A stretch of DNA of 64,000 nt from Bacteroidota bacterium (GCA_037127735.1 JBAXXU010000005.1:3700-67699), one strand, 5' to 3'. Positions 1,564 to 39,862 are shown, counted from the first letter of the stretch. Numbers and translations are program-made. The notes: a model not told the origin generated them from the sequence alone.

Positions 1564-4500
1564 TTACCCACTTTGTCTGTCTGATTTTGCAAACCGCAGG
1601 TTTTCAGAATATGTAACTATTTTTTGCAAAACATTAAAATACAAGGCAGTGTACAAAAACAGGGTAACAACCCATAAAACAATTTCATTAAACCAAAATG
1701 TGTCGATCTTAAGATTTCCGACTTGTTTATATGGAGCATAAAACTGAGCACGGCCATACTTTGAAAGTGGCTTCATGTAAGCAGGCTCATATTTCTGGAC
1801 TATTTTGTTTTGTATTATAACCGATTTATTAATATTAAGCCTGTTGAGAACAAGGTCCTCAAGACTTTTATTATAATAATTGTCCTTCAGCCCCATGAAT
1901 TCCTTTTCACCTATTTTTTTAACAATTGATTTATATACAGAATCTTGCAGGTCAGATGAATTTTTACTTATTCCTCTGAATTTTTTTGTAAGGAGATCCA
2001 GATAATTTAAAGACACATGAAGAGCTGCAGAATCCAAACTTTCCACGTTTAGTGCAGGTTTCAGATTATCAGGGATTTTAATTTCAGCTATACCTGACAA
2101 ATAATTTAAATAATATTTTAATCTGTTAAAGCTGTTACTCAATTCACTGCTTCCTATTTCTGCATTCTGGCACCTCTTAATATCTTTCTTCATTTCATAC
2201 ATCAGATAATCAGCATACCATATATTCTGGCTTGCTGTCATTTTATAATTGAAAAAGTTCCTTTCAAATTTGTTTTTTGTAAATTGTTCAACGGCAAGCG
2301 CTTCAAACGACCATCGTAGTGGCATCATATCACCGATGACGGGAACAAATTCACTGGAAGTAAAGCTGCCCTGATGAAGCCGGTCGAATTTCACTGAAAA
2401 ACCGCTGAATAATAACTGGGGAATAATAATACAGGGGATAAGGCTATAAATTGTTATTACTGAATTAAATGCCGATGAAATATTCAGACCAAGCATATTT
2501 GCCACACAAGAGGTTGTAAATAATACAAACCAGTATGAAAAAGTCATCCCCTTAATCTCGAGGATGAAGTTACCAATCAGAATAAAAGTTATTGTCTGAA
2601 TTGCTGATATTAAAAACATTATCATGACCTTTGAATTCAGGTAACTGAACCAGCTGAGATTAAGAAATGACTCACGCTTAAGTATTTTTCTGTCCTTCAC
2701 GATTTCTTCCGCACTGATTATCAGACCCAGGAAGAGAGATGTAATAACAGACATAAAAAGATAAGCCGGCAGGTTTTCGTTTTCGCTGAAAAGGTACTTT
2801 CCGTTAGTGGAATATTTAGTAAAATATGCAAGAATAAAAGCCAAAAGAGGTGCTATAAGAAGCATGATCAGAATATTTTGTCTGTTCGCCAGTTTAGACA
2901 AGATATCGCGTATAAAAAAAATCTTTGCCTGTTTTATCAGACCAGGGATGCTATAAAAATTTTCAGGAAGAAGCCGGTTCTCCCTGAAAGTTTTTTGTTT
3001 TGTTTTTTCTGCTATCCCGTCAAATTTTTCAGCCCATTCCCGCGGTGTGACTTTCCGGATATGAGTATGTTTCCCATTCTCGTTGACAACTTTGGCCTCT
3101 ATTATCTGAAGCAACTGGTCAGAGTTAATATTTCCACATGTAATACATTGGTCTTCATCAGCATTGGCGTAACCTGCCTTTGTTTTAAAATATACTATTG
3201 CTTGCGAAGGGTTACCATAAAAAATCTGATATCCCCCTTTGTCGATAATCATAATTTTATCGAACATTTTGTAAAGATCGGATCCCGGCTGATGAATATT
3301 GATAATAACCAGTTTTCCCCTGTATGTCTGCTCTTTTAGTAAATTCATCACTATTTCAGAATCGACTGAAGAAAGACCTGACGTAGGTTCATCAACAAAG
3401 AGGATTGTTGGTTCCCTGATTAATTCAAGGGCAATATTCAATCTTTTCCTCTGCCCCCCGCTTATCACCTTATTCAGGCTGTTGCCTACTTTCAGGTTCC
3501 TGATCTCATCGAGGTCCAACTCTATAAGAGCCTTATTCACAACAGCTTCCAGATCAACTTCGGAAAGATTATCCAGGCACATTTTAGCGTTGTAATAAAG
3601 ATTCTGATAAACTGTAAGTTCCTCAATCAACAGATCGTCCTGTGGTACAAATCCAATAACCCCTTTTAAATGGGTTTTTTCCTTTTCGGAATAGAGATTA
3701 AACCCATTTATCAGCACTTCACCGCTTTGCGGCTTTGTAATTCCACTCAAAACATTCAAAATGGTGGTTTTCCCAACTCCGCTTCCCCCTAAGATACCTA
3801 CCAGGTTACCCGATTCTTCATAGAAATTAAACCTTTGAATTCCATATTCACTGTTCTTAAACTTCAGGCAAACATCGGTAGCATCTATTGATATCTTAAG
3901 TTTGAATGTCTCATCAGTGAAAACACTTGTAATGTCATTGTAATATATTGTATCTATTCCTGAACCCCTGATAGTCGATCCGTGATCAAATGTATAGGTC
4001 TGATCAGGAAAAATATTCTGCCCGTTCAAAAAGAGGTCATCTTTTCCTGAATACCTCAAAATATATTTATTTGTGCTTTCTAAATAAAGCAGAAAAATCC
4101 TTTCCCTTAGATTTTCCTTAAATAAATGTTTCACTCCCTCAGGTTCACAATCATCCTTATTATCAATTATCATTACTCTGTTTTTCTCAGGGACATCATT
4201 AACGGAATTCAGTATAAAATTTTTAATATTACCGTATTCTGCCTGTGGTACATTAAATGCTGTCGATACAGTCTCGAGGAAATCCAGTTCATTCTCAGTT
4301 ATTTCAGCGCCGAACAATATAAAATCCATGAGCTGGACCAAAACATACATTTTTTGCTTTTGATCCAACTCTGCATTTATCTTTTCACATATTCCTAAAA
4401 TCCTGACAGAATTAAGAGAGGTGCGTTTCTTGTCCCTGATACTGCCCCTTGCAATATTTTCCGAATTGTATAGTACAAGGTTTTCATCAAACATTGTCAT

Positions 4501-4647
4501 ATACCTTTTCACCAATTCATTGTTCAGTTGACGCGATAGAAATAACCTTACAATATCCTTTTCCCTGCCTGATATCTTCCTGATATCGTGAACGTCACTT
4601 ATCAATGCAAATAATTGTATCAGTGCTTTTAATATCGGTTCAATCAT
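1564..4647 (-). CDS. ABCG-type (NBD before TMD) ABC transporter with N-terminal TerB-like and FHA-like regions
   Basis: Walker A GGSGVGKTT, Q-loop VPQDD, signature ISGGQRKR, Walker B LFVDE, IHQP, ABC-2 type membrane domain. Start set at ATG 4647 by comparison with the paralog at 36749-39862. Confidence 0.85.
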   Translation of the reverse strand: MIEPILKALIQLFALISDVHDIRKISGREKDIVRLFLSRQLNNELVKRYMTMFDENLVLYNSENIARGSIRDKKRTSLNSVRILGICEKINAELDQKQKMYVLVQLMDFILFGAEITENELDFLETVSTAFNVPQAEYGNIKNFILNSVNDVPEKNRVMIIDNKDDCEPEGVKHLFKENLRERIFLLYLESTNKYILRYSGKDDLFLNGQNIFPDQTYTFDHGSTIRGSGIDTIYYNDITSVFTDETFKLKISIDATDVCLKFKNSEYGIQRFNFYEESGNLVGILGGSGVGKTTILNVLSGITKPQSGEVLINGFNLYSEKEKTHLKGVIGFVPQDDLLIEELTVYQNLYYNAKMCLDNLSEVDLEAVVNKALIELDLDEIRNLKVGNSLNKVISGGQRKRLNIALELIREPTILFVDEPTSGLSSVDSEIVMNLLKEQTYRGKLVIINIHQPGSDLYKMFDKIMIIDKGGYQIFYGNPSQAIVYFKTKAGYANADEDQCITCGNINSDQLLQIIEAKVVNENGKHTHIRKVTPREWAEKFDGIAEKTKQKTFRENRLLPENFYSIPGLIKQAKIFFIRDILSKLANRQNILIMLLIAPLLAFILAYFTKYSTNGKYLFSENENLPAYLFMSVITSLFLGLIISAEEIVKDRKILKRESFLNLSWFSYLNSKVMIMFLISAIQTITFILIGNFILEIKGMTFSYWFVLFTTSCVANMLGLNISSAFNSVITIYSLIPCIIIPQLLFSGFSVKFDRLHQGSFTSSEFVPVIGDMMPLRWSFEALAVEQFTKNKFERNFFNYKMTASQNIWYADYLMYEMKKDIKRCQNAEIGSSELSNSFNRLKYYLNYLSGIAEIKIPDNLKPALNVESLDSAALHVSLNYLDLLTKKFRGISKNSSDLQDSVYKSIVKKIGEKEFMGLKDNYYNKSLEDLVLNRLNINKSVIIQNKIVQKYEPAYMKPLSKYGRAQFYAPYKQVGNLKIDTFWFNEIVLWVVTLFLYTALYFNVLQKIVTYSENLRFAKSDRQSG

Positions 4648-4718
4648 AAGTTTAAATTGTTGATGCTTTACATGAAAAACATTTATTAACAATGAAACAA
4701 TTCTTATTATAAAACATT

Positions 4719-4877
4719 ATGACTATCGGCAATCATGAATAAGAAATTGCAAATCGATTGAAAATCAATTTATTTACCCCAGCCCCAAGGGGAGTAAATT
4801 GATTTTCTTCGCACCCCATGGGGTCGGGATAAACGAAGAAAATCAATAGATCTTTTTTCATGATTGCCGATACTCAT
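4719..4877. mobile_element. MITE/REP-doublet-like palindromic element
   Basis: 21-bp terminal inverted repeats with one mismatch (4719-4739 / 4857-4877); internal perfect 14-bp IR attgattttcttcg (4798-4811 / 4834-4847). Confidence 0.7.
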
Positions 4878-4885
4878 TTAAAACA

Positions 4886-4893
4886 TATCTTTG
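4886..4893 (+). promoter_or_regulatory. Bacteroidota -7 promoter element (TATCTTTG) upstream of the SiaB-SiaC fusion
   Basis: Matches the TAnnTTTG consensus. Confidence 0.45.
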
Positions 4894-5024
4894 CTTATGG
4901 CTATTCAAATTAATAATATTTTATGTGCCCTGAAAAATATTTCAGGGGTTTCATGAACAACGATGACTTTATTTGGTTTATTCTTAAGTATTTATTCTAT
5001 AAATATAAGATTAAGATTAAGTAT

Positions 5025-5936
5025 ATGCCCGAATCAGGTATTATCCTGGATTATAGCGGTCCAGTGGATTTAAAGGTAATAGAATTACTTTTAATAAAGC
5101 TCAAAAGAACAGAGGAATTTACAACTTTAAATAAAACAACCGGGAAAAGGGTTTATGCTCTTGTCGTCGAGTGCCTGGAGAATATTTCTCAAAATCCGGT
5201 ATTGGCATTATCCGACGATCCCGGAATATACACCCATATCTCTGTCAGGCGGGAAAATGACAAGGTATTTATTACAGCCGGTAATCCTATACAAGGAAGT
5301 ACAAAAGACAACCTGGCCAGAAGACTCGATAACTTGAATAGCATGGATGAATTTGCTTTGAGAACTTTACATGAAAATATTCTTAAAAGTGAGTCAAAGA
5401 ATGGTGAAAACGGAGCCGGGCTTGGTTTAATTACTATGGCTTTGAAATCGGGAAATAAGATAGATTACAGCTTTGAACCCCTGATAAATGGCTATTTATA
5501 TTTTGAGATTAAAATTTCCTTAAATAAGTATATCATGCGAAAGTTGATTATTGACAAAACATTTGGTACTCCAAACGTCATACTTGATCCTGAAAAAAAA
5601 ATCTATCTGATTTCAGGTGAATCAAGGCCTCCTGATGTCAGGGAGTTTTATCAACAGATTCTATCATGGATGGAAGAATTTGGTTCATATCTCATCAAAT
5701 CGGAAGATAAAAAAGATCCGGTTGTGTTCAACTTTAATTTTGGATACTTTAATTCATCATCCGGAAAATTAATCCTTGATATTTGTAAGGTTTTAGCAGG
5801 TTTCCGTTTGAAGGGGTTTAATGTTATCGTTAACTGGCATCATGAAAAAGAAGATGTGGACATGCGCGAGGCGGGAAAAGAGTTCTCGAAAATTGTTAAG
5901 TTCCCTTTTGAATTTATTGAATCAGTGGTAAACTAA
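5025..5936 (+). CDS. SiaB-family kinase fused to SiaC (DUF1987) domain
   Basis: N-half has ECLENI and GAGLGLI (GHKL-like N/G boxes typical of SiaB). C-half from Met at 5535 has TP.V..D, ISGESRP, YFNSSS, WHH..ED.DM.E.G.EF typical of DUF1987. One continuous frame; the ORF could start as early as 4923. Confidence 0.8.
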   Translation: MPESGIILDYSGPVDLKVIELLLIKLKRTEEFTTLNKTTGKRVYALVVECLENISQNPVLALSDDPGIYTHISVRRENDKVFITAGNPIQGSTKDNLARRLDNLNSMDEFALRTLHENILKSESKNGENGAGLGLITMALKSGNKIDYSFEPLINGYLYFEIKISLNKYIMRKLIIDKTFGTPNVILDPEKKIYLISGESRPPDVREFYQQILSWMEEFGSYLIKSEDKKDPVVFNFNFGYFNSSSGKLILDICKVLAGFRLKGFNVIVNWHHEKEDVDMREAGKEFSKIVKFPFEFIESVVN

Positions 5937-5992
5937 TTCATCTGCAAACATTGTAAATGAATAATCATCAGTTCGCAAAACCATAGATAACA

Positions 5993-7960
5993 ATGTGGTC
6001 ACAAGTAATATATAACAATGATTACCAGTTAATTCATGACAAATCCCCTGACCGGAAGAAGTATAAAAAATTCTATATTGACCCGATTGCAGAAGGTCTG
6101 TATAAAGATTTTCAGCACTTAAACAATCAACATAAATATTCTGATACACTAAATAAAGAGTTCAGGGAACTAACAAAAACAGAGAAATCTTTTTGGTACG
6201 ACTTTGTATCAGAAATGCCAAAAAAAATTCAGGCACTGAATTTTTTTATACGCCCGTTCGAAGATTTTTGCAGGACATGTATAATAACAAATAGTGACAT
6301 TGACACACTTGTCCGGATGGACTATGATCGTTACTGCAGAGTATCAACTTCAAGGTATTTGACCAACTCCGGTAACATAACAAAAAAAAGAAAAGTTTCC
6401 CCATCTCTGAAATCCTTTCAGGGAACAATTAAAGACTGGAAGAGCTTCTCCCTCGAAATGAACTATTTAATTCCTGCCCAACTAAAAAAAATCGGGTATG
6501 AGATTATCCGGCCTGAGGAGGCTGCCGAAATTCAAATGGTACTGGTTAAAAAACTTGCAAGGGCCATTCATTCAAGATATTTACATGAGATACGAAATCA
6601 AAACAGAAATGCTAATAATTATGTTTTTAATAACACCAAAAATTCCGGGAATCAATATGCTACCGATTTTGATGATCTGCCTGACGAGATAAAATATTCT
6701 AATATTGATAATGCGGCACATATTCCAACAAAATTATTGTCAATCGGGTATAAGATCAGACAAGTTAAAAAAGATTATAAACCTTTTGCTCTCCATCTGA
6801 ATGAAGAAGAAATTGAAACTATGGCCAGGGTAGAACACATAAGGTGGAGTTGGGAAAAGAGACTAAATGGCTGGAGCTTCGGTACCATTAAAGACAATAT
6901 AAAGAAAACACATCCGGGCTTAATCCCGTTTGAAGAATTGAGCGAACCAGAAAAAGAAAAGGATCGCGAACTCGTGAAATTAATTCCCGCTTTTTTACAG
7001 GATATTGACTATGAAGCTTTTCCTGTTTCAACCAACCTGATTAAAAAATTATCATACGCATTAAAACCGCAGAGTAGTATCCAGAAAATTTTAGATGAAA
7101 CCAGAAAATTAAATCATCAGATCAGGAACCTGGTCACGTTGACTCCTGCAGTAGAAGATATGGTCGCGATCAGGAATAATATGATTGAAGAAGCCATATC
7201 TGAGGTGGAGGAGAGTTATAACTATGCACAACACATACAGGAAACATTTTTACCGGATGACCATTATGTAAGGGAATGTTTCCCTGATAGTTTTATATTA
7301 TTTAAACCACAAGATCTGATAAGCGGAGATTTCTATTTTTTCAGTAAACGTGCCGATTTAATAATATTTGCTGCTGCCGATTGCACCAGTCACGGGATTC
7401 CGGGGGCACTGCTGAGTACTATAGGTTATGGGATTCTCGACCAGGCTGTTAATGAAATAAAAATGACTGAACCATCTCATATTTTACATCATTTATACTA
7501 CAAGATACACCGGTTTCTTCGAAATGATAAAAAAGGAGGAGGACTTCCGGATGATATGGATATCATTCTTTGTATATTGGATACAAGTACCAACATACTT
7601 ACATACTCCGGAGTTAAGAATCCCATATACTGCATTAAAAAAGGTGAACTTTTTGAATACCGGGCTAATAACTTCAACGGAATTGGTGATGAGGATGGTG
7701 TATGTCAATTCATGTCAGAAAAGATACAGATGAACATAGGAGACACAATATACTTATGTTCAGATGGTTATGCTGACCAGCTTGGCGGGAAGAATCATAA
7801 GAAATATCAAACCGGAAGATTTAAGAGCTTCTTACAGAGTATCAGGGAGTTCTCAATGTCAGAACAAAGTGACAAGTTATACGAAGAGATTGAACAGTGG
7901 AGGGAAGAAAATAATGAAAACCAGACTGATGATATTCTGATTATTGGAATCAGGATATAA
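5993..7960 (+). CDS. RyR-repeat-containing SpoIIE/PP2C protein phosphatase (SiaA-like)
   Basis: RyR motif MARVEHIRW..EKRLNGWSFG..KD..KKTHPGLIPFEELSE.EKEKDR; PP2C motifs SGDFY, ADCTSHGIPGA, SDGYADQ, QTDDI. Confidence 0.85.
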   Translation: MWSQVIYNNDYQLIHDKSPDRKKYKKFYIDPIAEGLYKDFQHLNNQHKYSDTLNKEFRELTKTEKSFWYDFVSEMPKKIQALNFFIRPFEDFCRTCIITNSDIDTLVRMDYDRYCRVSTSRYLTNSGNITKKRKVSPSLKSFQGTIKDWKSFSLEMNYLIPAQLKKIGYEIIRPEEAAEIQMVLVKKLARAIHSRYLHEIRNQNRNANNYVFNNTKNSGNQYATDFDDLPDEIKYSNIDNAAHIPTKLLSIGYKIRQVKKDYKPFALHLNEEEIETMARVEHIRWSWEKRLNGWSFGTIKDNIKKTHPGLIPFEELSEPEKEKDRELVKLIPAFLQDIDYEAFPVSTNLIKKLSYALKPQSSIQKILDETRKLNHQIRNLVTLTPAVEDMVAIRNNMIEEAISEVEESYNYAQHIQETFLPDDHYVRECFPDSFILFKPQDLISGDFYFFSKRADLIIFAAADCTSHGIPGALLSTIGYGILDQAVNEIKMTEPSHILHHLYYKIHRFLRNDKKGGGLPDDMDIILCILDTSTNILTYSGVKNPIYCIKKGELFEYRANNFNGIGDEDGVCQFMSEKIQMNIGDTIYLCSDGYADQLGGKNHKKYQTGRFKSFLQSIREFSMSEQSDKLYEEIEQWREENNENQTDDILIIGIRI

Positions 7961-8022
7961 GATTTCCCATTCACATAAAATATACTTAATTGCCAAACAA
8001 CAGATGGAAGAAGCAGGAGACC

Positions 8023-9033
8023 ATGACAAAAAGAAAACATGACTTGCTGATCATTTTAATTATTGTACAAGCCGTGTGGGGCATATCATTTTTAAACAAA
8101 GATGATTTTTTCTCAATTATTATCCTGCCCGATACTCAATATTATTCTTCCAGATACCCTGACATTTTTTATCAGCAAATGGAATGGATAGTGGAGAATA
8201 AAGGCCTCCTTAATATCCAATATGTTGTTCATGTAGGCGATATTACAGACAACAATAAAGAATACGCGTGGGAAGTTGCCGGCACATCTTTTAAAATCCT
8301 GGAAAATGCCGGAATTCCATATTCCATCGTCTGTGGAGATAATGATATTAAAAACCCTGATAAAAACAATTATGACGGTACCCGCCATACAGATTTATTA
8401 AACAAGTATTTCCCGGTATCGCGGTTTGATAAACCTGATTCGTGGTGGAGAGGCGGATTCTTTGAACCGGGGAAAATTGATAACTATTATTGTCTTTTTA
8501 AATACAAGGATACCAAATTTATGATCATGAACCTCGAGATAGCTCCCCGAAGCGCGGTTTTGAAATGGGCAGACGATGTTATTTCCCAAAATGGTTCAAG
8601 AAAAGTTTTTTTAGTTACTCATGATTATATTGACAATAACGGAAAACGGCTTGACGATCTTAAAAGTTTTGGAATGGATGGCAGGGATATATCGGGTAAA
8701 CTTAAGGGGAACAATGCAGAGGCTGTATTTGAAAAACTTATTAAAAATAACCCAAATATTCTCATGGTATTATGTGGACATAAAGAAGGGACATACGAAA
8801 GAACCGTAAAAATAAAGATTTCAAAGGATTCCGAAAAAACCAGAAAAGTGTTCGAAATTCTGCAAGACTTTCAGGATGAGAAATTAAAAGGATCTGATGA
8901 AAAATCAGGTAAAGGATTACTTCGCGTTTTAAAGGTTTATCCTGAAAAAAACGAATTTGTGCTATCAACGGTAAGCGCTTTGACGGGAAAAACAAAAGAT
9001 GATGAAATCCGCTTATCGTCAGGAAAAAACTGA
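8023..9033 (+). CDS. Calcineurin-like metallophosphoesterase, probably exported or membrane-anchored
   Basis: Motifs LPDTQ, HVGDI, GDND (GNHD position), VTH, LCGH; N-terminal hydrophobic segment. Confidence 0.75.
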   Translation: MTKRKHDLLIILIIVQAVWGISFLNKDDFFSIIILPDTQYYSSRYPDIFYQQMEWIVENKGLLNIQYVVHVGDITDNNKEYAWEVAGTSFKILENAGIPYSIVCGDNDIKNPDKNNYDGTRHTDLLNKYFPVSRFDKPDSWWRGGFFEPGKIDNYYCLFKYKDTKFMIMNLEIAPRSAVLKWADDVISQNGSRKVFLVTHDYIDNNGKRLDDLKSFGMDGRDISGKLKGNNAEAVFEKLIKNNPNILMVLCGHKEGTYERTVKIKISKDSEKTRKVFEILQDFQDEKLKGSDEKSGKGLLRVLKVYPEKNEFVLSTVSALTGKTKDDEIRLSSGKN

Positions 9034-9144: not shown

Positions 9145-9741
9145 TTATTCCTTATAGAAAATATCCAATTCAGCAACTTTCCTTTTATAGTCAACCTTCC
9201 GGATTTTAACATTCATAATTTCTTTTCCTGTTATGCCGGAAATATCCTTTAGCAGTTTCTGCTTTTTATCAGGCTTAAGCATTTCCATATTTTCATAAGT
9301 TATTGTATATGACTCAGAATCGTACTTAACGAGGTACTTTTCCAATAGATATGCCGCTACAAGGATTATTACGTTTATGAGCAGCACCCCTAACATTGGG
9401 AATTTAAGCACCTTTAATGAATTAATCACTGAAATCCCGATGGTTGTAAATGTATATGCCATATCCTTGACACTGAAATTCCTTGTTCTTAATCTGAGGA
9501 TACCGAAAATGGCAAATAAGCCAAAAGCCATACCAATATCAACGAAAACTGTTCTCAACATAGAACTTATGAAGAATGTCATTATTCCCATAAGGAAAAA
9601 GGTAAATAAAAACTTCTCCTTCTTTGAGTATCTGAAATAAATAAGCCGGATAAGGATGAAAAGAAAAACAAGATTAATGCCAAACCTTACCATTATACCT
9701 AAAAAGGTTGGATTATTCAGACTAAAAAAACCATCAGGCAT
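9145..9741 (-). CDS. DUF4956 family membrane protein
   Basis: GMAFGLFAIFGILRLRT...KDMAY motif, several TM helices, C-terminal G.EI..VKI.KVD. Confidence 0.8.
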   Translation of the reverse strand: MPDGFFSLNNPTFLGIMVRFGINLVFLFILIRLIYFRYSKKEKFLFTFFLMGIMTFFISSMLRTVFVDIGMAFGLFAIFGILRLRTRNFSVKDMAYTFTTIGISVINSLKVLKFPMLGVLLINVIILVAAYLLEKYLVKYDSESYTITYENMEMLKPDKKQKLLKDISGITGKEIMNVKIRKVDYKRKVAELDIFYKE

Positions 9742-9759
9742 GATATGAATATTTTAGGG

Positions 9760-10836
9760 TTAAAAATTTTTACAACTATTCATTAATATTTCAACAATAA
9801 GATCTCTTCTTCCCTCTAATTTATCGAAAAATCCATCAAGATAATCAGTCATATCCTTTTTTGCCTGCCGATTTAAATATGGGAATTCATTGATTACCTT
9901 ATAAAACTCATCTTTCTTTGTTAAAAACATCTCCAACTCCTTTTGATATACTGCTTTACTGCGGCATACGCCCAGAAAAAGACGTTCACGTACGTTTTCG
10001 GTCCCAACAATTTCAGCAGGAATTGCATATGATGCATTCACCAGTCCGGTCCAGTCAAAATCGTATGGAATAGCCATTCCAAGCCCAAATGAACCATAAA
10101 CCAGCGATTTAATTACCAGCACATTATGCTGGCCCGGTAATGACCAATCATAATTCCCTATCATATAATTGAATATAGCTAACCTGTCCATCACCTTTGG
10201 AACGATACTTTTCTGGGTAAGAGTATGTGTTTTAATCTGAACTGTATTTGTTCTGGCAATTAACATTTCTACAGGCTCAAGGAAAAACCCATATTGCCTG
10301 ATTGGCTTTCTTTTCTTTTGTGTATCGATATAGTTAACCCTCAGTAATCTTACTCTGAAGCAGGTATCGGTGAGGACGTTAAATAGCTTATATGCCAGGT
10401 ACTCTCTAAGGACATAATCTTCATTCTCCTTTTCTGACCTGCATTGTGGAACAAGTTTAATTTTAGATATCTTATCCAGATCGGTATAGCCGAAATCGAC
10501 CTTTTTAAAGTTCAGTTCAATTGGAGGGAAAAAGCAATATTGATTGCGGAATATTCCACGGGTTCTCAATCTTATATTTCTATTTATTGAATCTGTTTTG
10601 CTTAAATGAAAGGTAATATTAGCTTTTAAATATTTATCCTGCGGTTTGGTTCTAAAATACGTGGAGAGGTCGAATTGCAAGGTTATCTCAATAATCTTAT
10701 CCTCCTCAAAAAGTCTGAAACTTTTTTTTGAGGAATCAGGAATTGCAGTTTGAGCCAGGGAAATAGAATTCTTGGCTATGAACAACGTAACAAGAAAAAT
10801 AACCATGTAATGTTGAAAGAATATTCCTTTTTTCAT
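9760..10836 (-). CDS. Secreted CotH-like atypical kinase-fold protein
   Basis: Signal peptide; RTRG..R, REYLAYKLF, FNYMIGNYDW, HN, IPYDFD resemble CotH-type kinase motifs. Confidence 0.55.
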   Translation of the reverse strand: MKKGIFFQHYMVIFLVTLFIAKNSISLAQTAIPDSSKKSFRLFEEDKIIEITLQFDLSTYFRTKPQDKYLKANITFHLSKTDSINRNIRLRTRGIFRNQYCFFPPIELNFKKVDFGYTDLDKISKIKLVPQCRSEKENEDYVLREYLAYKLFNVLTDTCFRVRLLRVNYIDTQKKRKPIRQYGFFLEPVEMLIARTNTVQIKTHTLTQKSIVPKVMDRLAIFNYMIGNYDWSLPGQHNVLVIKSLVYGSFGLGMAIPYDFDWTGLVNASYAIPAEIVGTENVRERLFLGVCRSKAVYQKELEMFLTKKDEFYKVINEFPYLNRQAKKDMTDYLDGFFDKLEGRRDLIVEILMNSCKNF

Positions 10837-36748: not shown

Positions 36749-39700
36749 CTAAAATTGCAGAAGGTCTCTTCCAAACTTTCGTAATATTGGCAATTTCAGG
36801 GATTCAAGAAATGCTATAAATTTCTTCAGGATGTTATAATACAATGCAATAAACAGAAATAGATTCAATAACCAGATCACACTTATATTAAACAACAGTG
36901 TTCCGATCCTGAGATCACCAATCTGTTTATAAGGAGCGAAAAAATGAGCTCTCCCATATTTTGATCCCGGAGGCATAAAGATAGGATCAGCTTTTTGAAT
37001 AAGTCGGTCTTCTGCATCATATATTTTACTGGCAGATAACCTGTTAAGTACAATGTTGGCAAGATTTTCATTATAATCTTTACTCCTCATCTCAATGAAC
37101 TTATCCTCTCCAATACTGCCGGCAATTTGTTTAAATAATGAATCACGTCTATTTGTTACTGCCCGGCTTTTTATTCTGAATGAACCCCTTAAGCTGTCGA
37201 GATATTTTGTTGCTTCATTAGCAACAAATTCATTCAAACCATCATAATTTATATTACTGATCCATGCCCCGGGGTTAATACCGGAAACAGAAGAAAGATC
37301 ATTTATATGATAATAAATTTTTCTTAAATTTTTCTCAACGGATTCCCGGTATTCAGGATTTTTTCCTTCAGCCAGACACTCGCTGACTTTTACTTTTAAA
37401 GTCGGGAGGAGAAATGAAGCATTCCAGTCATCCTGACTTATTTCCATATCATATTTAAAAAATGGCCTTTCAACTCTGTTACTCTTAAACTGTTCAACAC
37501 TCATTGCTTCATAAGCCCAGCGCGTTACCATAATATCTCCTACAACCGGGACAAATATTTTCTTGCTAATTGATTTGTGAAGGTCATCAAATTTTATCAT
37601 CGCTCCTCCCAGCAGGAGCTGAGGCACAAGTATAAGTGGTATAAGGATATAAATACTGACAGCTGTACGCATGCCGGCAGATATATTAAGTCCGAGCAGG
37701 TTACCGAAACAGGCAGTTGAGAAGAGGATTATCCATTGCTGGAAAAGCATACCTTGCACTTCAAGGATCGAATTTGCTACCAGGATAAATGACAAAGATT
37801 GTATGGCCGATAAAGCAAATAGAAAATTGATTTTTGAAAGAAGATAACTCAATCTGCTTAAGTCCAGAAATTTCTCTCTTTCAAGGATTTTTCTATCTCT
37901 GAAAATTTCTTCGGCGCTAACAGTAAGGCCGAGAAAAAGAGAGACTATAACTGACATGAAAAGGAATACCGGGTAATTTTTGTTGTTTGCAAAACTGTAT
38001 GTTCCGTTCTCGCTGAATTTTGAGATATATCCGAGAATGAAAGCCAGGAGCGGGGCCTCAAGAAGATTGATCGCCATATACTGAGTGTCTGCCAGCTTCC
38101 GCGTAAGGTTTCGTTTAATAAAAGTCTTTATCTGATCCGTTTTTTTGGGAACTCTGAAGTTGCTTGGAGGAATAGCTGTTTTTGAGGGCTTTATGCCAAG
38201 AACCGGCATCATTTTCTTTATATATTTCTCGTACCATTCCTTCGGGCTCACCTGTCTCTCTTTTCCGGGGTATCCTGAATTATCAATAACCTTAACCTCA
38301 ATAATATGCAAAATGTTATCTGTTTCAACATTTCCGCAATTCGGACATTCACTTTCGGCAGCATTTGCCTGCGATGTCTCAGTTTTAAAATAGACCAGGG
38401 CTTCAACAGGATCGCCATCATAGATCATATACCCCCCCTTATCGAGCAGCCACAGCCTGTCGAACATTTTGATGATATCTGAAGAAGGTTGATGAATTAT
38501 TGCAAAAACCAGCTTACCGCTCAAGGCCTGGTTTCTTAATAAACTCATAACTTTTTCTGAATCGAAAGAAGATAATCCTGATGTTGGCTCATCAATAAAC
38601 AGTACCACCGGCTCTCTCATAAGTTCAAGACCAATATTAAGTCGCTTCCGCTGGCCCCCACTCACCTTCTTATTCATCAAATCTCCAACCTGAAGATCTT
38701 TGATGTCAGAGAGGTCAAGATCATGAAGTACTTTTTCGACAGTGTTCTTTAGCTGTTCTTCATTATAATCGCCAAAACATAACCGGGCATTAAAATAAAG
38801 ATTCTGATATACTGACAGCTCCTCAATAAGCATATCATCCTGTGGGACAAATCCTATGAGCCCTTTCAGTTCTTCCGCATCAGAATTTATGTCATAACCA
38901 TTTATATAGAGGTTCCCGGATGTAGGGCTTATCTTGCCATGGAGCAAATTAATTAACGTGGTCTTGCCGACACCGCTGCCTCCCATAATGCCGATAAGAT
39001 TGCCCGATTCAACCCTGAAATTCATTTTCTGAAGTCCGTTATCGGAGTTCTTAAACTGAAATTCAACATCATGCCCCTCATAGAATATCTTTTCAGGGAA
39101 TTTCCTTGAAATGAATTTTTTATAAATTTTTGAATAATATATGGGATCAATATTCGGCCCCTTAATATTAACACCACGGTCAAGAAGATAAGGTCGGCAG
39201 GCAATAATATCTCTTCCTTTAAAATACAGAACCTGCGGGCCGTCGTAAGTAAAGAGAAGTGTTCCTGTGCTCTCAATATGCATCACAACAAGATGACCTT
39301 TGAACCCTTTAATCCTGATATGTCTCCATTTGTCGTAATTTTTATAGATGTCAGCGCCGGAATATTTAGGATTATCGCTTTCAATTATGAGAATACTCTC
39401 TGGTAATACGTCATCATACGATCTGCCAATCATGAAGGCGGTGGCGTTATCGTACTCCTTTTTAGAAATATTAAATGTCCTAGAAACAATGTCAATAATT
39501 GTCTTCTCCTGTTCGGAAATCATTCCATCTTCAAATGCAAATTCTATAAGTTGAAGAAAAACGATCATCCTTTCTTCAAGGAATAATCCTTTTTTTATTT
39601 GCCTGCAAATATTTGTTATCTGGAATGATATAAGAGAATCGTCATCTGACAGTTCAGCTTTGTCAACACTTTTCAGCTCATTTGAATAGAACTCAAGATT

Positions 39701-39862
39701 ATTCTGAAAGAGTGAATAATATTCTTCCTCCAGCTCCCTGTTAAGATATCTTCTGAGGTAGCTTCGAAGTATTTTTTTCCCCCGCGCTGAAATTCCTGAA
39801 GGATTGATAGTCGAAACGATTGCAAAAATGTGAATTAAAGCAAGTAATACAGATTCCCTCAT
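36749..39862 (-). CDS. ABCG-type ABC transporter with N-terminal TerB-like region (paralog of 1564-4647)
   Basis: GGSGVGKTT, VPQDD, VSGGQRKR, FIDEPTSGLSS, IHQP, CPNCG, ABC-2 membrane domain. Confidence 0.85.
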   Translation of the reverse strand: MRESVLLALIHIFAIVSTINPSGISARGKKILRSYLRRYLNRELEEEYYSLFQNNLEFYSNELKSVDKAELSDDDSLISFQITNICRQIKKGLFLEERMIVFLQLIEFAFEDGMISEQEKTIIDIVSRTFNISKKEYDNATAFMIGRSYDDVLPESILIIESDNPKYSGADIYKNYDKWRHIRIKGFKGHLVVMHIESTGTLLFTYDGPQVLYFKGRDIIACRPYLLDRGVNIKGPNIDPIYYSKIYKKFISRKFPEKIFYEGHDVEFQFKNSDNGLQKMNFRVESGNLIGIMGGSGVGKTTLINLLHGKISPTSGNLYINGYDINSDAEELKGLIGFVPQDDMLIEELSVYQNLYFNARLCFGDYNEEQLKNTVEKVLHDLDLSDIKDLQVGDLMNKKVSGGQRKRLNIGLELMREPVVLFIDEPTSGLSSFDSEKVMSLLRNQALSGKLVFAIIHQPSSDIIKMFDRLWLLDKGGYMIYDGDPVEALVYFKTETSQANAAESECPNCGNVETDNILHIIEVKVIDNSGYPGKERQVSPKEWYEKYIKKMMPVLGIKPSKTAIPPSNFRVPKKTDQIKTFIKRNLTRKLADTQYMAINLLEAPLLAFILGYISKFSENGTYSFANNKNYPVFLFMSVIVSLFLGLTVSAEEIFRDRKILEREKFLDLSRLSYLLSKINFLFALSAIQSLSFILVANSILEVQGMLFQQWIILFSTACFGNLLGLNISAGMRTAVSIYILIPLILVPQLLLGGAMIKFDDLHKSISKKIFVPVVGDIMVTRWAYEAMSVEQFKSNRVERPFFKYDMEISQDDWNASFLLPTLKVKVSECLAEGKNPEYRESVEKNLRKIYYHINDLSSVSGINPGAWISNINYDGLNEFVANEATKYLDSLRGSFRIKSRAVTNRRDSLFKQIAGSIGEDKFIEMRSKDYNENLANIVLNRLSASKIYDAEDRLIQKADPIFMPPGSKYGRAHFFAPYKQIGDLRIGTLLFNISVIWLLNLFLFIALYYNILKKFIAFLESLKLPILRKFGRDLLQF

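Follow-up and report, generated by a model that had tools for sequence, protein, structure and literature searches.

The known targets of partner switches are sigma factors, diguanylate cyclases and secretion regulators, and we know of no description of an ABC exporter under the direct control of a partner-switch phosphoprotein. The reference system for the locus analysed here was SiaABCD of Pseudomonas aeruginosa, for which structures of SiaB-SiaC (6KKO), SiaC (6K4F), the PP2C domain of SiaA (6K4E) and SiaC-SiaD (7E6G) are solved. The locus lies in a stretch of 64,000 nucleotides (nt; the whole stretch is called the window) of an uncultured freshwater Bacteroidales bacterium, the draft genome of which is 4.63 Mb in 316 contigs and 98% complete. 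It is a conserved signalling unit of three genes, for a fused SiaB-SiaC protein, for a phosphatase that is soluble and carries RyR repeats, and for the ABC exporter next to them. With a probability of roughly 0.55, this unit is a Sia-type partner switch of a Bacteroidales lineage without GGDEF proteins, having the neighbouring exporter as its output and not a diguanylate cyclase.

The same three families are found in SiaABCD and in the window (a kinase of the SiaB type, a phosphoprotein of the DUF1987/SiaC family and a PP2C of the SiaA type, the last preceded by a helical linker), the acceptor is placed at the N-terminus of helix alpha2 in both, and the predicted contact with the target is made by the same face on a helix. 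The two differ in that kinase and substrate are one polypeptide here, that the acceptor is Ser and not the Thr of SiaC, that the phosphatase is soluble with RyR repeats whereas SiaA has a membrane/HAMP sensor, and that no SiaD or GGDEF protein is present in the genome, the candidate target being an ABC exporter. The module works like a Sia partner switch but is no member of the SiaABCD system, since it lacks the cyclase that defines that system and scores below the equivalog cut-offs of SiaA, SiaB and SiaC. The likeness to Pseudomonas is best taken as an analogy: SiaB/SiaC pairs are carried by 225 of 401 sampled genomes of the GGDEF-less Bacteroidia.

Other described systems share parts of this arrangement. 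As in RsbU/RsbV/RsbW, SpoIIE/SpoIIAA/SpoIIAB and HsbR/HsbA, where a GHKL-type kinase, a PP2C and a STAS-like phosphoprotein are combined and phosphorylation state chooses the partner, a kinase, a PP2C phosphatase and a STAS-like phosphoprotein are encoded together here, and the gene order is kept in 32 of 46 related loci. The phosphoprotein in the window belongs to the fold family DUF1987 and not to STAS, it is fused to the kinase, and the proposed output is neither a sigma factor nor a cyclase. Mycobacterium tuberculosis Rv1747/PknF resembles the locus in having an ABC exporter with N-terminal FHA domain(s), an order of nucleotide-binding before transmembrane domain and Ser/Thr phosphorylation control from a neighbouring gene. 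There, a Hanks-type Ser/Thr protein kinase acts on the transporter's own linker, whereas the regulator here is a partner-switch phosphoprotein with a predicted docking site on a TerB-like head; no FHA sequence signature is detectable in the FHA-like domain. With the RY12/RyDEP proteins the phosphatase shares the PF02026 repeat, with H..W and T-H-P stretches aligned to RyR1-3; it differs in that the repeats head a PP2C phosphatase, and their correspondence to the published ligand residues would be by analogy.

Literature searches that covered few subscription journals returned nothing on SiaB-SiaC fusions, on RyR-PP2C phosphatases or on an ABC exporter as a partner-switch target. They returned no paper for DUF6272 or for SiaB/SiaC family-type or SiaB-like/SiaC-like proteins and nothing relevant on bacterial RyR domains with B. 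thetaiotaomicron; DUF1987 was found in PMC8457831 only. The parts of the module are already in databases under generic names.

The fused SiaB-SiaC protein and the RyR-repeat phosphatase

The open reading frame (ORF) of the fused gene extends over 4923-5936 (+), and because all 23 aligned homologues begin at M35 of its 337 residues, the gene was set to the 303-residue form listed in Table 1. Pfam coordinates for the fusion are given in 337-residue numbering and all other residues of the fusion in 303-residue numbering. DUF6272 (PF19788) matched residues 69-194 (E = 5.8e-27, 94.4 bits, cut-off 26.6) and SiaC (PF09345, DUF1987) matched residues 210-333 (E = 2.3e-28, 98.7 bits, cut-off 24.5). The fusion scored 105 bits against the NCBIfam model for SiaB family protein kinases (SiaB_fam_kinase, NF038262; cut-off 85) and remained below the cut-offs of the P. 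aeruginosa equivalogs for SiaB (NF038264, 56.5 bits against 225) and SiaC (NF038265, 60 bits against 150).

A profile of 24 homologues was then compared to solved structures, and residues 3-163 matched P. aeruginosa SiaB (6kko_A, 1e-15) while residues 171-296 matched P. aeruginosa SiaC (6k4f, 1.6e-11). E49 and N53 of the motif VECLENI align with the E and N of IEMTQN in 6kko_A, as do the AGN and GAGLG motifs, and E49, N53 and GAGLG are invariant in 24/24 sequences; in P. aeruginosa SiaB, E61 is given as the predicted catalytic residue (PMC7647112). S244, the first S of YFNSSS, aligns with T68 of LYLNTSS in P. aeruginosa SiaC, where T68 is the mapped phosphosite (PMC7647112). The stretch YFNSSSGK is invariant in all 24 sequences of the fused clade, the acceptor being Ser there vs Thr in a group of relatives termed T-type. 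The structure model of the whole fusion is of moderate quality (pLDDT 75.8, pTM 0.60).

For the phosphatase, Pfam RyR (PF02026) matched residues 272-340 (1.4e-17, 64.1 bits, cut-off 27.4) and, more weakly, residues 182-256 (3.2e-5; 24.5 bits, under the cut-off, when the N-terminal part was scanned by itself), and SpoIIE (PF07228) matched residues 458-654 (5.1e-15, 56.3 bits, cut-off 25). The SiaA-PP2C structure 6k4e aligned to residues 387-654 (4.1e-30) and shares GDFY, DC..HG.PGAL, DG..DQ and DDI, the motifs of the metal-binding Asp residues; the helical linker at about residues 364-455 also aligned to SiaA. The SiaA equivalog NF038263 reached 167.3 bits against a cut-off of 700, and only its model positions 377-657 were covered. 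On the Kyte-Doolittle scale with a 19-residue window, no segment of the fusion or the phosphatase reached 1.6 (maxima 1.42 and 1.41, respectively), and both proteins are therefore considered soluble.

The strong RyR repeat aligned to the repeats of RyR1-3, including the H..W and T-H-P stretches, and to the bacterial structures 3nrt and 6uag. The first ~177 residues resembled RyR-domain proteins weakly, with Atlas structure rows at TM 0.43-0.46. Among relatives of the N-terminal 350 residues, 118 of the best 120 (587 matches) carried both PF02026 and PF07228, all with generic names only. The RyR-PP2C gene was directly downstream of the SiaB/SiaC gene(s) in the 32 loci named above; more distant loci had other PP2C proteins instead, either of ~412 amino acids (aa) on the opposite strand or of 710-1083 aa. 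The RY12 domain of RyR1 is described as binding ADP selectively, and prokaryotic and viral RY12 homologues with varied domain architectures are tentatively proposed there as nucleotide sensors (PMC13642953). Crystal structures of RyR Repeat12 contain AMP-PCP or ADP (PMC12627627), and a mycobacteriophage RyR-domain protein, RyDEP, binds and cleaves 2'/3'-cyclic ADP-ribose through residues that are described as conserved throughout PF02026 (PMC13232231). By analogy with PMC13642953 and PMC13232231, the most likely ligand to be sensed by the RyR repeats of the phosphatase would be an adenine nucleotide, either ADP/AMP or a derivative of ADP-ribose. The prokaryotic RY12 architectures of PMC13642953 may already include a RyR-PP2C.

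The initial annotation, made from the sequence alone, had described SiaB-like and SiaC-like domains in one polypeptide and a phosphatase that is soluble and carries RyR repeats instead of a membrane sensor, and both descriptions were borne out, the hidden Markov model scans for SiaB/DUF6272, DUF1987, RyR PF02026 and SpoIIE all being above cut-off. It had also named a stop before position 5535 as a sign that the fusion was a sequencing artefact. No such stop was found: a metagenome contig from run X2 (4783-7047), which belongs to the same study as the probable source sample, bridged the junction without a stop and with three differences, none at the junction, and contigs from runs X4 (5342-5582) and X5 (5518-5818), both of other studies, bridged it without a stop and with no differences. 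In the database, 120 of 120 listed clusters (the best 120 of 721 matches; 60-75% identical, ~300-303 aa) carried both Pfam domains, some under the NCBI names 'SiaB family protein kinase' or 'SiaC family regulatory phosphoprotein', and a second fused SiaB-SiaC paralogue was present in the same genome on contig C47. Nothing beyond the 316-contig draft state of the genome was found in favour of an assembly or sequencing artefact or a pseudogene; the contigs of three other runs that cross the junction unchanged, the two-domain database clusters, the second paralogue and the sense codons described next make this explanation vanishingly improbable.

In order to compare junctions, the 46 related loci were taken from a species-representative genome collection. 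Their common geometry was the end of SiaB, two codons and then the ATG of SiaC. The codon at position -2 was a sense codon in 28 loci (TAT, TAC, AAT, CAT, TTT, TGT or TCT; TAT in the window) and a stop in five (TAA in L017, L027 and L031, TGA in L044, and by ORF geometry in L036). Six loci were split by a frame change or a 4-nt overlap, and the remaining loci were more distant, partial or degraded. The SiaC start ATG, which is M171 in the window, was retained in every fused gene, and Y169 is the position of the TAA/TGA in split orthologues. A quick IQ-TREE maximum-likelihood tree (27 rows) was built for the linked exporter; on it the fused state requires at least three changes, and the TAA locus L017 is nested in a 13-row clade (support 99) of which the other 12 members are fused.

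Class-wide, most full-length matches among those listed had a single in-frame stop between SiaB and SiaC, and only four among the 150 matches listed were open throughout (the window genome's two copies, G014 and G267). A representative library at 50% identity gave 13 further B-C representatives of ~300 aa among its best 150 matches, and also B-B forms (~370 aa), C-C forms (~260 aa) and ~500-aa forms resembling B-B-C. By these sequence comparisons the fusion is a real, selected state of its clade that is gained and lost by one base and is evolutionarily labile. The switch called rewired in the initial annotation is no deep rewiring as far as the fusion is concerned: a change of a single base in one codon converts fused into split forms, the operons being the same in all else, and the two forms probably work alike. 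That the fused gene also yields free SiaC from the retained ATG is only a hint, because R172, K173 and L174 are equally invariant.

Several further observations concern the arrangement of these domains. The own genome encodes a tandem DUF6272-DUF6272 protein of 376 aa (contig C60, 6431-7366), and SiaB and SiaC domains occur in many fused permutations. Most of the listed Bacteroidia pairs (including L017, L027 and L031 at 9505-9513) are in the same frame with a single stop between them, often with just one codon ahead of the ATG. Such single-stop in-frame spacing fits termination-reinitiation coupling, and the stop may also be read through; the listing favours in-frame pairs. A complete module (exporter, fused gene and RyR-PP2C; 47% identity) was found at L039 in a metagenome-assembled genome labelled Chloroflexota, by binning contamination or transfer.

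The neighbouring ABC exporter as candidate output

No GGDEF match was found in the 4.63-Mb genome by a search that was positive in 8 of 14 control genomes, and none over the cut-off was found in 101 genomes sampled from the class. Because GGDEF was absent and yet SiaB/SiaC were carried by the 225 genomes counted above, often with at least five matches per genome, a different target is needed. The exporter was divergently upstream in 41 of the 46 loci, distant loci with a different phosphatase included; one of the five loci without it has only 118 nt of upstream sequence. Its head (profile A2) was found in 205 of the 401 class genomes. Among 40 other exporter loci (the top 40 of the class sample), SiaB/SiaC were within 7 kb in 15 and immediately adjacent in 11, where a convergent and therefore different gene order was observed; the same convergent arrangement of exporter and SiaB/SiaC is present on the own contig C34. 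Across the 401 genomes, 197 had both exporter head and SiaB/SiaC, 8 the exporter head only, 28 SiaB/SiaC only and 168 neither, counts in which kin are not independent and which include G094 and G180 (flagged unpublished), both positive for both.

The T-type pairs of Bacteroidia, such as that on C34, have in common with the module the exporter family, its docking helix and the families to which kinase and phosphoprotein belong, and many of the pairs are in frame with a single stop between. They differ in that kinase and phosphoprotein are encoded separately and in convergent orientation to the exporter and that the acceptor is Thr (YFNTSSSK); their usual phosphatase is a PP2C protein of ~1080-1216 aa encoded upstream and not a RyR-PP2C.

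The exporter is laid out as an N-terminal head, an ABC ATPase (PF00005, 4.7e-30, residues 286-438), an ABC-2 membrane domain (PF01061, 1.4e-19, residues 588-802; both in the 1042-residue numbering of the full ORF) and a C-terminal extension that contains a further hydrophobic segment. Hydrophobic segments were found at 587-754 and 984-1008, and TIGR00955 reached 241 bits, below its cut-off. The head was modelled with AlphaFold2 (AF2) at pLDDT 85.4 and pTM 0.84, with helices over residues 3-146 and strands over 158-235. In VIA-align comparisons the helical bundle matched 2h5n (Z 9.2, root-mean-square deviation (rmsd) 3.7, 119 residues aligned) and 2ou3, a COG3793 tellurite-resistance protein (Z 8.1); Pfam TerB gave E = 0.21, and helical bundles often reach such Z values. 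For the beta-sandwich, about 35 FHA-domain entries were returned at Z 5.7-7.3 (all below Z 8) with rmsd 2.0-4.3 over 71-89 residues, among them FHA-2 of Rv1747 (6cah; Z 6.2, rmsd 2.4, 71 residues aligned). Foldseek FHA rows for the head had E values of 0.009-0.2, and none of the Foldseek rows from the PDB for the two-domain head reached E<=0.001. Pfam FHA had no match to the head at E<=10, HMMER filters dropping weak matches; Pfam gave sub-threshold SWIRM and TerB only for the head and nothing for the C-terminal 238 aa. Because neither has a significant Pfam match, the two modelled domains are called TerB-like and FHA-like only. Canonical FHA domains bind phosphothreonine and not phosphoserine, and a canonical FHA read-out is disfavoured because the acceptor here is Ser.

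A complex of the exporter head (residues 1-245) and the SiaC domain (171-303) was modelled, and interface scores (ipSAE) of 0.79, 0.80 and 0.81 were obtained, compared to 0.11 for the best of three controls and 0.04 when the head was swapped for an unrelated protein. Of 80 solved complexes 58 attained the ipSAE mark, as did 2 of 110 mismatched pairs, a rough calibration only, for which own alignments were used. The runs agreed in at least 98% of contacts, with a partner pLDDT of 89. On the exporter side the modelled interface is made by residues 71-88 (71, 73-78, 80-85 and 88) and 119-130, and on the SiaC side by residues 239-245 (including N243, S244 and S245), 247-251 and 277-290. In P. aeruginosa, SiaC grips a stalk helix of SiaD by its alpha2/alpha3 face and an N-T-S triad, and phosphorylation of T68 abolishes the contact (PMC8457831). 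The modelled exporter contact uses the same alpha2/alpha3 face and an N-(T/S)-S triad.

The docking helix, KRTS(L/V)NSV(K/R)(I/V)L.IC, is the most conserved stretch of the head (27/27 orthologues and 40/40 sampled class-wide homologues). Charges at the modelled contact differ between the two subfamilies. In the fused clade (S-type), SiaC has K/Q/R/H at 285 and R/K at 289 and the exporter has G/A/S at 85 and E/D at 88 (27/27 loci); in the T-type pairs, SiaC has E/G at 285 and A at 289 and the exporter has K/R/L at 85 (14/14 pairs). The change of charge on both sides is probably a single evolutionary event, and as evidence of coupling it is suggestive only.

Taken against these results, the absence of a GGDEF gene near the locus that had been noted in the initial annotation extends to the whole genome, and the co-occurrence survey it proposed linked the two families across the class. 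Its compact two-gene switch gives way to a unit of three genes, the exporter included. The suggestion that the divergent ABCG exporter is the output gained backing from the conserved adjacency, the class-wide co-occurrence and the passing complex model, which make the exporter the best candidate output, with binding as a prediction of the model.

Features of the locus and neighbouring genes

Coordinates are collected in Table 1. The exporter start corresponds to M16 of its ORF, where 26 of 26 aligned orthologues begin, and 56 bases separate the fused gene from the phosphatase gene. By record titles and run labels, the clade of the module is one of uncultured Bacteroidales, mainly from peat/fen and freshwater.

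Table 1. Positions of the module and its parts in the window, with the basis of each assignment
Feature	Position	Strand	Basis
ABCG-type exporter, 1027 aa	1564-4647	-	ORF opens with TTG at 4692; start set by orthologue alignment
FHA-like beta-sandwich of exporter (residues 158-235)	3943-4176	-	modelled strands, fold matches
TerB-like helical head of exporter (residues 1-146)	4210-4647	-	AF2 model, VIA-align
Predicted SiaC docking helix IRDKKRTSLNSVRILGICEKIN (exporter residues 70-91)	4375-4440	-	complex-model interface, conservation, checked translation
Repeat resembling a miniature inverted-repeat transposable element (MITE)	4719-4877		terminal inverted repeats; in divergent intergenic region
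Fused SiaB-SiaC gene, 303 aa	5025-5936	+	ORF, Pfam, NCBIfam, homologue starts
SiaB-type (DUF6272, GHKL-like) kinase domain (residues 1-168)	5025-5528	+	match to 6kko_A
Junction TAT ATC ATG (Y169 to M171)	5529-5537	+	codons at the junction in the 46 loci, bridging contigs
SiaC-type (DUF1987, STAS-like) phosphoprotein domain (residues 171-303)	5535-5933	+	Pfam, structure match
Predicted phospho-acceptor S244	5754-5756	+	alignment with T68 of P. aeruginosa SiaC
Soluble RyR-repeat/PP2C phosphatase, 655 aa	5993-7960	+	Pfam, NCBIfam, structure match
RyR repeats (weak: residues 182-256; strong: 272-340)	6536-7012	+	Pfam PF02026
SpoIIE/PP2C catalytic domain (residues 458-654)	7364-7954	+	Pfam, 6k4e alignment

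The MITE-like repeat between exporter and fused gene is no part of the switch. It is ~155 bp long with internal palindromes, has 24-nt inverted arms (4719-4742 and 4854-4877) that are 92% complementary, and has 48 matches in the own genome, eight of them near full length and 85-100% identical; metagenome contigs showed high depth and many loose ends at 4750-4850, inside the repeat. A sigma-70 promoter scan, which does not cover Bacteroidia promoters, gave 15 sites compared to 19.3 expected.

A second exporter with a TerB/FHA-type head is encoded in the window (36749-39862, -; 1037 aa), matched by the head profile at E = 6.7e-45 and lacking an adjacent SiaB/SiaC, and the genome carries five such exporters (two on C5 and one each on C27, C32 and C34). 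Directly after the phosphatase gene is a calcineurin-like metallophosphoesterase (7990-9033, +) with an N-terminal hydrophobic segment (residues 16-37), followed by a DUF4956 gene and an adjacent 358-aa gene without a Pfam match (9145-10836, -). The metallophosphatase was rejected as a part of the module, its position being variable and within the flanks in 8 of the 46 loci only. The DUF4956 gene and its neighbour, near the module in 18 of the 46 loci in varied positions and orientations, and a TPR gene, also of variable position, were likewise rejected. No PADLOC defence-system model matched the fusion, the phosphatase or the metallophosphatase, and the exporter matched generic ABC-ATPase models only.

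Proposed mechanism, alternatives and significance

In the proposed mechanism, the SiaB-like domain would phosphorylate S244 of the tethered SiaC-like domain, either in cis or across a dimer, and the soluble PP2C would remove this phosphate with an activity set by its N-terminal RyR repeats, which would sense an adenine nucleotide. The unphosphorylated SiaC domain would dock by its alpha2/alpha3 face, with S244 in contact, on the KRTSLNSV(K/R)IL.IC helix of the TerB-like head. Docking would alter transport of a presumed exported substrate, by activation or by inhibition, and phosphorylation would free the SiaC domain.

Several results weigh against this mechanism. The complex score is the model's own confidence and may borrow from the solved docking of SiaC on the SiaD helix, although to our knowledge no structure of SiaC bound to a TerB-like domain has been solved. 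Exporters that have no switch beside them show the same conservation of the docking helix, which thus does not discriminate, and the FHA-like domain has no role in the mechanism. No SiaB/SiaC was found within 7 kb of 25 of the 40 sampled exporter loci, all 25 genomes having SiaB/SiaC elsewhere, and SiaB/SiaC were present without an exporter head in 28 of the 401 genomes. The fused paralogue on C47 (L098, 535-3100, -) is a 303-aa fusion with YFNSSSAK. The gene after it encodes a protein of 397 aa that ends in an AraC-type HTH_18 domain, an AAA_15/AAA_21 ATPase precedes the fusion divergently, and no exporter or PP2C is nearby. Because this paralogue has no exporter, SiaC-family proteins have other targets and the family therefore several outputs; the HTH_18 protein may be a transcriptional output of the same kind of switch.

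These last observations (the 28 genomes, the 25 loci and C47), together with the multiple SiaB/SiaC copies per genome, favour a switch that is real with its target elsewhere, for example a transcription factor or another enzyme, and an exporter that is a neighbour through shared regulation or physiology, for example by exporting a compound whose level the switch reports. Such an arrangement would have to account for adjacency retained in two gene orders, for a complex model that passes with the phosphosite in the interface and for charges that shift on both modelled contact sides between subfamilies, and it is judged rather unlikely, while still deserving serious weight. The two-residue linker that tethers both domains would also suit a fused SiaC domain serving as an intramolecular pseudo-substrate or timer, with the GHKL-like SiaB domain controlling a partner in the manner of RsbW or SpoIIAB; the SiaB fold class is indeed that of anti-sigma kinases. 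This is improbable, as fused and split forms interchange in the same operon, which argues for a kept free-standing role of SiaC, the 46 loci show neither a conserved sigma factor nor any other conserved candidate for a partner, and the effector binder in P. aeruginosa is given as SiaC and not SiaB (PMC8457831).

Much the same low credence is given to direct action of the phosphatase and/or kinase on the exporter, for example on T76/S77 of KRTS, with the FHA-like domain as reader and SiaC as a competitor substrate only. The presence of that domain, the invariant basic KRTS motif and the precedent of Rv1747, an FHA-bearing ABC transporter under Ser/Thr phosphorylation control (PMC3138270), are set against the missing Pfam FHA match, the lack of a Hanks-type kinase conserved in the 46 loci and the fact that SiaB-family kinases are known to phosphorylate SiaC only (PMC7647112).

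With the exporter retained as the preferred output of the switch, a wider proposal can be put forward tentatively, at a little under even odds. In Bacteroidia without cyclic di-GMP cyclases, Sia-type switches would have this ABC exporter family as their principal output, with unphosphorylated SiaC docking on the KRTSxNSVKxLxIC helix in the TerB-like head and gating transport post-translationally. The input in this lineage would be an adenine-nucleotide/ADP-ribose signal received through the RyR repeats, and the fused gene may give both tethered and free SiaC, since the SiaC ATG is retained in every fused gene.

For the prokaryotic RyR domains that have recently been proposed as nucleotide sensors, the RyR-PP2C would supply a concrete output, and fusion and fission at a single codon provide a natural experiment on what changes when a kinase is tethered to the protein it phosphorylates. 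Of the whole finding, the link to the exporter most deserves experiment. About half of the sampled Bacteroidia (197/401) carry a SiaB/SiaC pair together with the exporter family, and a testable target for these switches would open a widespread signalling route in gut and environmental bacteria.

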